From positions 79,935 through 143,934 of IMG/VR virus record IMGVR_UViG_3300021425_002093: DNA of 64,000 nt; one strand, given 5' to 3'. Source of the DNA: a virus. Below the pieces are notes generated by a model. It was not told where the DNA came from, ran no database searches, and was given only the letters and a program-made list of their open reading frames with translations. The translations under genes and the position numbers were made by a program. This document shows, one piece after another, positions 4,773 through 14,342 of this stretch (the first letter of the stretch is position 1; each line of letters opens with the position of its first letter).

Positions 4773-5384
4773 TCATATTCTGGCGATATACGAGTTACGC
4801 TTTAAGTTATCTTTCAGCTTTTTACCCGTAGATCCTGCTGTTTGATGCGAATTTAATTGCTCATCCCAAACTTGATCTGCGGCAGCATTTGCAATGTTCG
4901 TAATATCCTGATCTGTCAAACTCACACCAACAGCTTCTACAGTAATTAAATCAACGATATTCGATCTTACAAGCGAAACAGAAACACCTTCCGCAAAGTA
5001 AAACGGAGTCTGACCCGCTTCTCGTGTATATAAGTTTCCTTCAATCGTCAATGTATATGATGACTTTGAAGCAAAGGGCTGTATCCTCCATCCATTCTCA
5101 AGAAAGTATGTGACACCAAGATCTCTATCTTCAGTAATCGGGTCACCACCAACAGCAGTAAATGCTTTATCCCAAACTCTAGCATCGGGTGCTTCCGTCG
5201 ATGCAATATTCCATTCTTTCCAAGCGGAATACAAATCCGTCTTTACGTCTAACGTTGTCACTCCTTCATCTACAAATATCGTTCTTGTTGGCCCATCGAA
5301 TGCAACCTTTTGATTTGGGTATCCACCCTCATCAGCAGGAAGCCAATTCCATCGAGTCCCATAAAACTGATGAATCGAAGGCAT
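4773..5384 (-). CDS. Hypothetical structural protein of the portal-linked cassette
   Basis: ORF track starts at 5405, but the ATG at 5384 overlaps the upstream stop (TAATG), giving about 203 aa. Motifs DLYSAWKEW, AF..VGGDP, FLENGWRI. Confidence 0.75.
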   Translation of the reverse strand: MPSIHQFYGTRWNWLPADEGGYPNQKVAFDGPTRTIFVDEGVTTLDVKTDLYSAWKEWNIASTEAPDARVWDKAFTAVGGDPITEDRDLGVTYFLENGWRIQPFASKSSYTLTIEGNLYTREAGQTPFYFAEGVSVSLVRSNIVDLITVEAVGVSLTDQDITNIANAAADQVWDEQLNSHQTAGSTGKKLKDNLKRNSYIARI

Positions 5385-8071
5385 TACTGAAGTATCTCTT
5401 TCCAAGTAATGCTAAACATAATTCTAGGATCTTGCATATCCTTAATTTGCTCGTGTGCAAAGAAAGTCCAAGTCGAGCGAGATCCTGTAAATCCATGAAT
5501 AACAGGATTCACTGACGCAGGATCGAAAGCAAAATCAGTTGTATCCACAGGAATCGTAAGCAATCGATCTTGATACAAATACGCTTTCGTCAAGTTAACA
5601 ATCTTAATGAAAACAGTTCTTGGGAATGGATTTGCAATACCAGTAGAAGAGATACTATGACAATGCAATGCGCCATCTGCGGTATTTTCATTCAATGGGA
5701 ATGTTGCTGTTTGTGGTTCTCTTAACAGCCAACGATCACTTGTTTCTGGTCTACATTCAGCATCAGTCGGATCAATCGTAACGACTGGTGGTCGAGTCAT
5801 CGTAAACGTTTCAGCGCCAGAGAACGTTCCGGTTGTTGCTGAACTTAATGTGACTTGAGTTCCACTATCCACTGAACGAATTACAGTGTTTGCGGGAATG
5901 TTTGTTCCGCTGATCGCACCACCTTCGATTAACTTAATGTGCGTCAGTGTAGTCGCCGCAGGAATTGCCTTGTTCTGAATTGGCTTAGTTAGCGTCAACA
6001 CGCTTCCATTGATATCAAGAATGTTTGTTCCGTCAGATGTCAATGGAGTATTATTTGAATCAAGAACGGTTACTGATCCACCGATAACAAATCCAGTTGC
6101 GTCTGCTACTTCAATTGTAGTAGAATATATTGCGGTTGTTCCGACTGTCGTAGTTGTCGCAGTCTGATCGTCAAGTAAAAGCGTAGTGCTATTACCTACA
6201 GCATCAACAGCCGCTCCCACTCCTGTCGTTTCAATTGAATTGTCGATATCAGAAATAACTTGTTCTGCTACACCACCATCATCGGGTCTATTTTTCCAAG
6301 CACCGTTTTGTAGATTAATATAGCGATCTGTGAGAATATCTGTAAATTGCCCATTGAACATATCTTCAAATTCGATGTTCTTTGTATTTCCCAATAAGTT
6401 TGTGTCTTCGAATGAAGTACCAGCAGTTGAAATTTGAAAGTTAGTGCCTGGGATGTCTTGAAAATCGTGGCCGCTATGAACGCAATCTCTACCTATTCGG
6501 AAGTGTACAATTGCGTCACGATTTGCTCCCGCAGAAATCTCTCCCTCAGTATCCACATTATTATCATATGCATATGCAGTGATCTTTGTAGGAACAAAAA
6601 GACTATGATCTACTGAACCCGAAGCAAGCAATTCTTTTGGAGATAGAGTAAACAATGGTCTGAATCCAGCACCATCTACAGCCAAGTGCCCAGATGTGTA
6701 AACTTTTGGACGACCTAGTGACTGTAAATCGATATCTGTTTCCGTCCATACAGATGAACTCCAACTTCTCATGTAGACGTAGTTAGCATCTTCTGGTCTC
6801 GACGAAGTTAAGCCCAAACGAACAAGGTCTGAAGGAAGCGGCCCAAAGTTACCGTCTGTTCCCGACCCATCTCCATAAACAGCATGATTTTGCATTTCGC
6901 TGTCGCTGTAGTAGTACAGTTGTTGACAAGCCGGAAGTGATGCTGTTGCACTTAATGATTCTGTGTTGCGATTACCGTGGAAGTATTCATGAATAACGAG
7001 ACGTTGACCATCATTAAATGTGCCAAATCTTACTCGACCTGCGCCATGCCACTGAATATCAAGCCAGAAGATATTGTCCTTTGATAAGTCGAAGTCCATC
7101 TGACTACGATTGCTCAATGTTCTGGAGCCGTTAATTAAGTCGCCATTGAAGTTATCGAATCCGTCCGATGTATCCGATGATGCTAAAATATAATTCTTAA
7201 CAGATCCAGATACACTTGATCTTCTTACGAGATAAAGGACACCCGTTGGGCCGACACGAAACATAAATCCATTGTCTGCGTCAAAAAGTCCAAAATTTCT
7301 TTCCGTACCTGAATTAGTTGCAGGCAATGCACTTACTTTGCCAGTATCACTAAACAACATTGTTCCCATGAACAAATGACCAGAGCCGGGTATATAGTGA
7401 TGATAGGTCTTGCTTGAAGCCGCCGCAAAGTCTTGTTGTTCTTTTACTCTTGGCTCAATGTACTTTCCAGTATCACTAAAAAAGACATCTGCTTCTCGTT
7501 TTGCCCTTGCGCCTGTATTAAGATATGTCAACGAAAAGTTTTCTAAGAGTTCGTCAATATTAGAGTAAACATACTCACCTAAGTGAGTTGCGCCTGTTGT
7601 GCGAAGTTTACCGAACGCATCGAGAGTTGGGCGACCGTCCGCTAGTGTTACGAGTGCTGATCCATATGGATCAATGTCGAGCCCATATTCGGGATTGTCA
7701 TATCCCATGATATTTTGTGCTGGAATATAGACATCGTAAAATCGAACAACTTCACCCACAATTCGAGTAGCACCGCCATCGTCGGGATCGACGATTGTTT
7801 GACCAACGCTAGGCTCGTTATTCTCAAATTTATTTGCTTTTGAGTAGTGAACAGCAAGAACGCCAGTACCGTCACCTTTATCATAAACACCGTGAAGATG
7901 CACCATCCCAAATCCTGTGACAGTGTACATTGAGCCGATCTTCCAGTTGTATCCAATGCTATTTCCGCCAGTGTTCGTTCCGAACTCAATCTCGGCAGTG
8001 TGGATCATGTATACACGATCACCAGTACTCTCTGGTGGAATTCTAGTAAATCTTTTATCTCCGAGCGCCAT
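5384..8071 (-). CDS. Large putative virion protein with a lectin/concanavalin-like beta-sandwich core and inserted small beta domains
   Basis: 895 aa; DAFGKLR, HYIPG, FGLFDADNGFMF, DLSKDNIFWLDIQWHGAGRVRFG. The fold call is an inference. Confidence 0.7.
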   Translation of the reverse strand: MALGDKRFTRIPPESTGDRVYMIHTAEIEFGTNTGGNSIGYNWKIGSMYTVTGFGMVHLHGVYDKGDGTGVLAVHYSKANKFENNEPSVGQTIVDPDDGGATRIVGEVVRFYDVYIPAQNIMGYDNPEYGLDIDPYGSALVTLADGRPTLDAFGKLRTTGATHLGEYVYSNIDELLENFSLTYLNTGARAKREADVFFSDTGKYIEPRVKEQQDFAAASSKTYHHYIPGSGHLFMGTMLFSDTGKVSALPATNSGTERNFGLFDADNGFMFRVGPTGVLYLVRRSSVSGSVKNYILASSDTSDGFDNFNGDLINGSRTLSNRSQMDFDLSKDNIFWLDIQWHGAGRVRFGTFNDGQRLVIHEYFHGNRNTESLSATASLPACQQLYYYSDSEMQNHAVYGDGSGTDGNFGPLPSDLVRLGLTSSRPEDANYVYMRSWSSSVWTETDIDLQSLGRPKVYTSGHLAVDGAGFRPLFTLSPKELLASGSVDHSLFVPTKITAYAYDNNVDTEGEISAGANRDAIVHFRIGRDCVHSGHDFQDIPGTNFQISTAGTSFEDTNLLGNTKNIEFEDMFNGQFTDILTDRYINLQNGAWKNRPDDGGVAEQVISDIDNSIETTGVGAAVDAVGNSTTLLLDDQTATTTTVGTTAIYSTTIEVADATGFVIGGSVTVLDSNNTPLTSDGTNILDINGSVLTLTKPIQNKAIPAATTLTHIKLIEGGAISGTNIPANTVIRSVDSGTQVTLSSATTGTFSGAETFTMTRPPVVTIDPTDAECRPETSDRWLLREPQTATFPLNENTADGALHCHSISSTGIANPFPRTVFIKIVNLTKAYLYQDRLLTIPVDTTDFAFDPASVNPVIHGFTGSRSTWTFFAHEQIKDMQDPRIMFSITWKEILQ

Positions 8072-8105
8072 TTAATTATCCCGCTAAAATTGTTCTAATT
8101 TTAAT

Positions 8106-8113
8106 TATTTATA
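8106..8113 (-). promoter_or_regulatory. Late promoter TATAAATA (895-aa gene)
   Basis: Exact consensus in the intergenic gap. Confidence 0.8.
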
Positions 8114-13098: not shown

Positions 13099-13106
13099 TA
13101 TTTATA
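13099..13106 (-). promoter_or_regulatory. Late promoter TATAAATA (829-aa gene)
   Basis: Exact consensus immediately after the collagen gene stop. Confidence 0.85.
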
Positions 13107-13109
13107 AAA

Positions 13110-14342
13110 TTAGCTATATTCGTAAGTCGCTCTATCATCCCAAGTCTTCGTGAATTCAGCGGTATTGTCTGCCCAAATCACTTCAAGATCATCTCCTAGT
13201 TCATAAACACGCTTGATTCTCCAAGACGCAGAGTCACGAGTAGAACCCGGCTCTGCTTCACCTACATAAGTGAAGTCTCCTTCAACATCTATTAGCTTGT
13301 CGTATTGCTTTTCTACACCCACTTTTAGTCTCTCTACGATATCTGTGAATGACTCTGATACGAATTTTTGCTTACTTGCGTCAAAGATGAGGACTGACTC
13401 TCCTTCGACTTCATGCACTTTTTGAAATTCTACATCATCATTGTCTAAGATTCGGACAGAACCACCACCTGCGGAAGAAGCCCACTGTCCCATTTGTTGA
13501 TTAACTCTTTGCTTAAATTGATCAAACTGTCGAGTTAATTCTTCTATCTTTTTTGTATTTGTTTCTACGTTAGTGTCAAGATCTTTATTCAGTCTAGTCT
13601 CAAATGCTGATATCTCAGCAAGGGTATTCTTAGTAAACTCTTCGAATTCAGACTTACTTGTACTTATAGATTCCGTTAGCGATTGAGAAAACTGAGCGAA
13701 CTCTTCTGTGAAATCTGACCCATCTTTTCCTGCTGGGCCCGTCTCGCCCTTCTCGCCGGTGTCTCCTTTGACGCCTTGGATGCCCGGTTCACCCTGCTCG
13801 CCCTTGTCTCCTTTCTCACCTTTATCTCCCTTTTCACCACGCTCACCCGCTAAGCCTTGATCTCCTTTTTCTCCTTTGAGACCCTGTTCTCCACGTTCAC
13901 CTTTGTCACCTTTTTGGCCCCGTTCTCCGATATCCCCTTTATCGCCCTTATCGCCCTTGGGTCCTTGTAAACCACGCTCTCCAGTCTCACCACGCTCTCC
14001 TTGTATTCCTTGCTCACCTTGGATTCCTTTCTCGCCTTGCGGACCGGGGTCTCCCTTTTCACCATCTCGTCCACGAGGTCCAACACCTCCTGTATCTCCT
14101 TTTTCACCCGTATCTCCCTTTAGTCCACGCTCGCCCTGCAACCCCATAGGGCCGGGATCGCCCCTTTCTCCTTTTAATCCTTGAGGGCCGATTTCACCTT
14201 GCTCACCTTGAAGACCACGACGACCCATTGGCCCAACAATCGGGGGCTGTCTGTTTTCGTCTATTGCTTTGCTGATTTTATGTTCGGCTAACTTTAAACC
14301 AGCTTTGAGAAGTTTAACTTGTTCAAGTTCATTCATTATCAC
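13110..14342 (-). CDS. Collagen triple-helix protein with coiled coil and C-terminal globular domain
   Basis: 410 aa (true start may be the ATG at 14336); uninterrupted Gly-X-Y run, heptad-like region, then [19 protein letters not shown]...F...WDDRATY; overlaps the portal stop. Confidence 0.9.
13713..14234 (-). repeat. Collagen (Gly-X-Y)n, about 58 consecutive triplets
   Basis: Counted by hand from GPM GRR GLQ through GKD GSD. Confidence 0.9.

Follow-up and report, generated by a model that had tools for sequence, protein, structure and literature searches.

We analysed a window of 64 kb that forms the last part of the 143,934-bp IMG/VR record IMGVR_UViG_3300021425_002093, a T4-like virus record estimated to be about 80% complete, and studied a block of 9.6 kb that lies in it between the portal gene gp20 and the gp67/68-like genes. 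Analysis of the open reading frames finds six genes in this block, all on the minus strand, just as an earlier note on this DNA had described them, and three of the six are related to genes 53, 54 and 55 of cyanophage Syn5, the gene set of the Syn5 horn, in which gp53 and gp54 are the reported horn proteins and gp55 is a proposed knob of the capsid. In the direction of transcription the genes for terminase, an 887-aa (amino acid) sheath protein, gp19 and the portal gp20 are followed by the six genes of this cassette, and then by genes for an acidic 70-aa, a 141-aa and an 88-aa protein, gp21, gp22 and gp23.

The portal gene (14329-16014; Pfam Portal_T4, 1.7e-171; PHROG 213) forms the upstream boundary. 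It is followed by the gene of a 410-aa collagen-like protein (13110-14342; Pfam Collagen, 2.5e-30), the gene of an 829-aa gp53-like protein (10572-13061), that of an acidic, helix-rich 99-aa protein (10218-10517), which abuts the gene of a 699-aa gp54-like protein (8118-10217), and the gene of an 895-aa protein (5384-8071). The sixth gene encodes a gp55-like protein of 210 aa when read from a TTG codon (4773-5405), although Met8 (ATG at 5384) is nearly invariant in its family, which points to a 203-aa protein whose start overlaps the 895-aa stop by 1 nucleotide (nt). The gp53-, gp54- and gp55-like genes are all contained in a single stretch of 8.3 kb. At the downstream boundary (4524-4766, minus strand) a late promoter motif at 4759-4766 precedes the acidic 70-aa gp67-like gene. 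The 141-aa gp68-like gene comes next, and its product is 39% identical to phiM12_070, which is located between gp20 and gp21 in Sinorhizobium phage phiM12.

By portal identity the closest isolates are the phiM12 group (59%) and the cyanomyoviruses (∼50%). Two small genes separate gp20 from gp21 in phiM12 and one does so in cyanophage S-RIM32, in keeping with the earlier note's statement that gp20 is normally followed directly by gp67, gp68 and gp21. Because phiM12 has just two small genes at this position, we regard the ∼9.6 kb as a genuine addition to the usual T4-like order. At the DNA level megablast found no match to the region among 50,697 phage records, and our search of the phage collection found no isolate of this T4-like lineage.

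The T4-type late promoter motif TATAAATA occurs 14 times in the window, where 3.6 copies are expected, and 12 of the 14 copies are on the minus strand. All seven copies below 20 kb sit just upstream of genes. Among them are the minus-strand copies at 13099-13106 and 8106-8113, exactly where late promoters had been reported before; the first lies 45 nt 5' of the 829-aa gene, whose start is preceded by the Shine-Dalgarno sequence GGAGGA, and the second lies just 5' of the 895-aa gene. A GC-rich hairpin (GGGGGAG-ctagt-CTCCCCC; 10542-10560, minus strand; dG -15.5) is found 12 nt past the 829-aa stop codon, and the remaining strong hairpins nearby are located 3' of gp23 and gp19. Promoter, strong Shine-Dalgarno sequence and 3' hairpin, the three elements by which the earlier note had singled out the 829-aa gene, are thus all present, and they recur elsewhere: TATAAATA is located 45-98 nt 5' of the gp53-like gene in most of the related T4-like loci, and an equivalent GC hairpin comes after that gene in almost every related locus, whether T4-like or not. 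The cassette genes are most likely expressed late from the phage's own promoters, as judged from this layout. The conserved promoter-gene-hairpin unit favours, and is consistent with, a role of the gp53-like protein as major subunit. The note had called this protein a high-copy polymer subunit; its gene does have an expression layout of its own that is conserved among relatives.

Relatives of the Syn5 horn genes in the cassette

A blastp comparison of the 829-aa protein with Syn5 gp53 gave four collinear high-scoring segment pairs running from the N- to the C-terminus (residues 1-51/1-52, 133-209/57-138, 373-628/129-344 and 792-828/408-444 of the two proteins), the best of them at 2.5e-26. When isolated phages were searched by tblastn with the same protein, six records were found, including Syn5 (gp53 at 5e-20), its relative S-TIP28, the metagenomic virus Rctr197k and the Maribacter phage Panino. 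The protein consists of a conserved N-terminal domain, a core and a C-terminal immunoglobulin (Ig)-like domain that ends in LERNY. Inserted in the gp53-type core are four small beta-barrels of ∼80 residues each (53-135, 196-286, 294-371 and 631-736).

An AlphaFold (AF2) model of the 829-aa protein, built from a 51-sequence alignment, reached a mean predicted local distance difference test (pLDDT) score of 87.2 and a predicted template modelling (TM) score (pTM) of 0.74. In this model the barrels structurally resemble the Uba1 FCCH domain, an endosialidase barrel and barrels found on phage tail tubes, tailspikes and capsids (Z 7-9), with superpositions at a root-mean-square deviation of 2.0-2.7 over ∼73 residues. 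The C-terminal domain has a weaker Ig/pilin-like match (Z 5.8-7.5). A Foldseek search with the whole model returned only low-TM matches that were driven by the small barrels, the conserved core, which was not searched alone, showed no known fold, and a Pfam search at E values up to 5 gave merely a sub-threshold match to Phage_attach. A hidden Markov model of the barrel also detected two copies in the 887-aa sheath protein (16689-19352), one in a 446-aa protein (53952-55292) and one in a 1246-aa protein (58014-61754) of the window. Because the barrels are found in the tail sheath and in two other large virion proteins as well, they are probably exposed surface modules, and the module looks like a surface decoration that is reused across the virion. 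Its signature reads G-x-N-[DN]-G-x-aromatic-x-V.

The 699-aa protein has a variable middle and a conserved C-terminal domain ending in SQSLDRNY. Profile comparison with hhalign relates the last 87 residues of its family to Syn5 gp54 with a probability of 97.7% (E 1.4e-12). The two are also connected through Rctr197k_179, which is matched by the 699-aa protein in blastp at 5e-10 and itself matches Syn5 gp54 at 1.8e-12.

The 210-aa translation of the last cassette gene matches Syn5 gp55 (blastp, 3.7e-11) and Rctr197k_180 (3.5e-22). Its product has a conserved N-terminal domain (residues ∼32-155) followed by a C-terminal helical segment, and it is the most conserved protein of the cassette, with 46-83% identity among relatives as compared with identities that drop to 24-35% in the large proteins. 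Relatives at 57-95% identity form 437 clusters. The N-terminal domain as such belongs to a very large family, comprising 2191 clusters at 50% identity, for which there is neither a Pfam nor a PHROG model. The AF2 model of the gp55-like protein has a pLDDT of 81.6 (88-98 in the core); compared with solved structures it gave no Foldseek match, and the best VIA Z was 2.9, which is no proof of a new fold. In many relatives the N-terminal domain is fused to long coiled-coil or repeat extensions, and a conserved attachment end joined to a long extension is the usual design of a fibre. We also observed the C-terminal helical segment (∼150-200; ..A.QVWDE.L..H...GS.G..L..) in 10-17 tandem copies in metagenomic proteins of up to 2380 aa, which look like long repeat fibres built on the gp55-like N-terminal domain.

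Database searches beyond these relatives added little. At E values up to 5, Pfam gave no match for the 699-, 895-, 99- and 210-aa proteins, the matches of the 895- and 699-aa proteins in the ESM Atlas were all unnamed viral clusters, and sequence and profile searches of the PDB found no match for any of the four large cassette families.

Linkage of the cassette across phage genomes

An IMG/VR scan with an alignment of the gp55-like protein gave 466 loci, and the best 80 of these are all T4-like, with gp21, gp22 and gp23 downstream of the gp55-like gene. Twenty-one T4-like loci extend over the full 10 kb upstream. Among them the collagen-like and the 895-like genes are both present in 21/21, the gp53-like gene in 20/21 and the gp54-like gene in 17/21; the gene of the 99-aa protein is found in 11/21. 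The gene order between portal and gp21 is shared by five loci (L009, L010, L011, L013 and L097), and metagenomic contigs that carry relatives of the 829-aa protein at 37-57% identity have a matching portal-to-gp21 order. All related metagenomic T4-like contigs of sufficient length have the cassette at this position. Judged from these genomes, it is no private insertion of this phage but has long been conserved in a large T4-like lineage of marine phages.

The gp53/54/55-like trio is also found outside the T4-like lineage. In Syn5 it consists of three adjacent late genes, in Rctr197k it lies within genes 176-180 and in the podovirus Panino within CDS0097-0100, and it is further present in the IMG/VR contigs L007, L008, L012 and L096, the last of which has all four large families. 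In siphovirus-type contigs the trio is bounded by the gene of the major head protein on one side and by head-tail adaptor genes on the other, a slot that is the normal site of head decoration genes. The earlier note had proposed to ask whether its six genes travel together; they co-occur in the same order in T4-like relatives, and the trio stays together in unrelated phages too, mostly within blocks of head genes. The note's idea of a self-contained appendage cassette is supported by this linkage.

Three of these contigs have further features of their own. In L008, a 63-kb contig that is not standard T4-like, a PHROG 213 portal gene is followed by compact gp53-like and gp54-like genes (7814-11191), and its gp53-like protein is 44% identical to Syn5 gp53, making it a second lineage with portal-adjacent horn genes. 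A PHROG 1084 protein follows the trio both in siphovirus-type L012 (16702-17064) and in podovirus-like L007 (17560-18327); it may be a further linked component, and we recognised no counterpart of it in the window.

The 99-aa protein, 59-63% identical in L009-L011, has no Pfam or PHROG family match and is possibly an assembly factor, which is a guess. The 895-aa protein has conserved N-terminal (∼500 aa) and C-terminal (...WKEIxQ) parts that flank a variable insert, and its residues 194-384 match positions 87-258 of the 440 positions of PHROG 1645 (5.1e-26), a partial match that leaves large extra regions. By tblastn it matched 108 phage records, mainly of cyanomyoviruses. The earlier suggestion that this protein is a lectin-like tip found support of no kind and was rejected; the conserved part is instead related to the cyanomyovirus 'virion structural protein' of PHROG 1645.

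All sequence and linkage features of the Syn5 horn set are present in the cassette, with gp54 represented by its C-terminal domain only. We conclude that the block is a T4-like version of the Syn5 horn cassette that most likely builds a horn-type appendage of the head, a reading to which we assign a probability of roughly 0.6. The appendage is most likely on the head because of the homology to the Syn5 horn genes together with the position of the genes in the head-gene blocks of unrelated phages. Syn5 gains its horn as the final component, on the vertex facing away from tail and portal (PMC4238041). The presence of the cassette products in the virion, their location on the head, the order in which the subunits join and whatever they may do there, for instance in adhesion or stabilisation, are what we infer from these comparisons. 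A literature search found no paper that describes relatives of the horn genes in T4-like phages.

Terminal motifs and the place of the products on the virion

The earlier note had pointed to motifs shared among the cassette proteins, and motifs of this kind are indeed found at their termini. The gp53-like and gp54-like proteins end in tails that contain [DE]R[NQV][YF] in all of ∼30 distinct pairs or loci, in the forms ...[LV]ERN[YF]xNP and ...DR[NQV][YF]xNP, and their last 45 residues align in register. Variants of the tail match within a genome: in Panino both proteins have RQY, in L052 both carry a GSV extension, and in the clade of the window NP is missing from both. The tail has low confidence in the 829-aa model, as is expected if it serves as a docking peptide. 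At the other end, the N-terminal domains of the gp55-like and gp53-like proteins have a collinear beta-beta-helix pattern, a YSxxKxxW signature and a later aromatic Trp in common. We considered whether the gp53-like and gp54-like proteins are paralogous subunits and rejected this beyond the short tail, as whole-profile hhalign found no relation between them.

The cassette products most likely form a slender appendage that is built onto the outer surface of the filled head. In the arrangement that we propose, the gp55-like protein would form its base, the gp53-like protein, with its four small barrels of a sugar-binding type, would be the major and possibly repeating subunit of the shaft, and the gp54-like protein would be the distal piece. 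At each joint the [DE]RN[YF] C-terminal tail of a gp53-like or gp54-like protein would dock into the N-terminal YSxxKxxW domain of a gp55-like or gp53-like protein. The collagen-like protein, presumably a trimeric fibre coupled to the portal gene, and the 99-aa and 895-aa proteins are additions specific to the lineage. The distribution of motifs, with a socket only in the gp55-like, socket and plug in the gp53-like and a plug only in the gp54-like protein, is consistent with a base, a repeating unit and a cap, and because of this pattern the 699-aa protein is a more likely distal piece than the 895-aa protein. A bolder extension, which we put forward only tentatively, is that the cassette specifies a new kind of self-assembling filament in which a [DE]RNY plug enters a YSxxKxxW socket to give base, repeat and cap, and which is portable between podo-, sipho- and myovirus heads and a highly expressed standard part of an abundant ocean T4-like lineage. 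If true, such a plug-and-socket filament would make the Syn5 horn one case of a general architecture and would lend it a wide role in ecology, e.g. in sugar-mediated sticking to particles or cells.

The gp55-like protein and the expression layout of the 829-aa gene also bear on a different arrangement, in which the gp55-like protein would sit in many copies on capsomers across the gp23 lattice with the gp53-like and gp54-like proteins hanging from it, giving a hairy capsid that would correspond in function to one decorated by T4 Hoc. No other gene of the cassette is nearly as conserved as the gp55-like one, which would suit a protein that binds a lattice, the 829-aa gene shares its promoter-plus-hairpin layout with gp23 and gp18-19, and small barrels of the FCCH-like kind typically decorate surfaces, as they do in phage Bridgette and on a VP1 capsid. 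On the other hand, the gp55-like domain serves T7-like, T4-like and siphovirus capsids, which argues for binding to cassette partners over binding to one lattice. Raytcheva et al. 2014 are said to have placed gp53 and gp54 on the Syn5 horn, and not on the shell, by immunogold labelling. Syn5 gp55 itself has been tentatively assigned to the ∼120 capsid knobs, two per hexamer, in a 4.7 Å map (Gipson et al., PMC4102127), an indirect assignment. On balance we regard a decorated lattice as unlikely, and less so than the two placements that follow.

The collagen-like protein has 58 uninterrupted GXY triplets (49-58 in most homologues). A short N-terminal helix precedes the GXY run, which is followed by a segment resembling a coiled coil and, at the C-terminus, by a globular domain (window 13110-13500) with the signature WRIKR...IIWA...W[DN]DRxTYxY. 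This domain is conserved across homologues and has no family match in Pfam up to E 5. Its DRxTY resembles the DRNY tails of the cassette. The collagen gene begins inside the portal gene, with an overlap of 14 nt at the portal stop, and the identical overlap is found in L009, L010 and L011. This conserved overlap could mean that a collagen trimer is made in step with the portal, is fixed to the portal or neck and bears the other proteins in place of fibritin whiskers. The note had suggested a collagen tether and a replacement of the collar and whiskers, both of which are guesses. The T4-type portal gene of L008, directly followed by a gp53-like gene, would suit such a neck or collar fibre, as would the gene upstream of gp13, which is fibre-chaperone-like and not wac, and the lack of a match to Fibritin_C (PF07921) in the 144-kb record. 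However, the same Fibritin_C search was blank in the control genomes too and the record is ∼80% complete, so that absence of the domain is unproven, and most T4-like phages other than the T-even group have no wac anyway. Adjacency to the portal gene is not the same as physical attachment, the trio occurs without a collagen gene in Syn5, Panino, Rctr197k and L012, and the Syn5 horn is located opposite the portal (PMC4238041). A neck fibre is thus improbable in our view.

Elsewhere in the window, the gene just upstream of gp13 (23672-24247) encodes a C-terminal Phage_tail_APC chaperone domain (2.1e-20) and is preceded by five giant fibre-like genes (1182-1649 aa). The 144-kb record, at its ∼80% completeness, has a single gp23-family gene (775-2085) and no gp24-like vertex paralogue was found in it, because of which the five-fold vertices may be built unlike those of T4.

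The collagen-like protein matches many PHROG 'tail fiber' families, the barrels of the 829-aa protein resemble those of tailspikes and endosialidases, and the Panino trio adjoins an endolysin gene and large tail-like genes, all of which would fit an auxiliary tail fibre or a depolymerase module for host recognition at the tail. The collagen matches, however, are confined to the repeat, no catalytic family was detected with Pfam, and upstream of gp13 the genome already has its giant fibre genes in a long row. The siphovirus-type trio, moreover, is flanked by the genes of the major head protein and the head-tail adaptor and does not follow the tape measure gene, and antibodies to gp53 and gp54 reportedly did not neutralise Syn5. 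We consider a tail module very improbable.

Several observations weigh against a horn-type head appendage as well. Syn5 gp55 was placed on the knobs and not on the horn, by secondary-structure reasoning at 4.7 Å (PMC4102127), and strong expression of the 829-aa gene fits many capsid copies as well as it fits a single filament. The homology to gp54 is confined to the final ∼87 residues, the rest of both proteins being without detectable relation. Of the terminal similarities, that of the tails gives a weak profile match (E 9e-4, probability 23%), and the one that the gp55-like and gp53-like proteins show in their N-terminal domains does not reach significance (hhalign E 0.05-0.19). Panino carries the trio, yet its published description mentions no horn or appendage, and while the Syn5 horn has been seen on particles, the T4-like lineage is known here from genes alone.

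Comparison with the Syn5 horn and other known systems

The cassette products resemble T4 fibritin (wac) and Hoc in that they look like dispensable, late-expressed fibres or decorations added to the head or neck of a T4-type virion. Like fibritin, the collagen-like protein is expected to be a trimeric rod. It differs from fibritin in having a collagen repeat rather than a coiled coil and in its genomic position; no sequence relation between the two was found, in a search whose Fibritin_C control was also blank. With other collagen-like phage fibre proteins (the PF01391 tail fibre PHROGs) it has the GXY run in common, whereas the globular domain at its C-terminus is confined to this T4-like lineage.

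The 895-aa protein and the PHROG 1645 protein of cyanomyoviruses (e.g. S-RIM32 YP_009301622) share a central domain (residues ∼100-385 of the 895-aa protein, 26-33% identity) and a C-terminal ending of the W[KR]E type. The former is about twice as long and is encoded within a horn-type cassette, whereas the latter is encoded by a lone packaging-region gene between gp16 and gp17, in genomes where tblastn found no relatives of gp53, gp54 or gp55.

To our knowledge the Syn5 horn has since 2007 stood alone as the peculiarity of a single phage, with neither a known function nor a solved structure. Our comparisons suggest that the Syn5 gene set is a constant and strongly expressed component of a large T4-like lineage of uncultured marine phages and that it moves between morphotypes, and for these two reasons the Syn5 oddity looks like a general virion module. 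They would also provide a first functional label for six hypothetical genes that recur in ocean viromes, and they name concrete contact motifs.

Syn5 (Autographiviridae, Voetvirus) is a T7-like podovirus that carries its trio between the terminase subunits, whereas the phage of the window is a T4-like myovirus in which the genes are located between the portal and the prohead-core genes, in a different order and with three added genes (collagen-like, 99 aa and 895 aa). The gp53-like protein of the window is almost twice as long as Syn5 gp53, owing to its four inserted barrels. Despite these differences the two sets are homologous over the whole length of gp53, the C-terminal part of gp54 and the N-terminal part of gp55, and both consist of late structural genes in neighbouring positions whose products have the [DE]RN[YF]-type tail in common.

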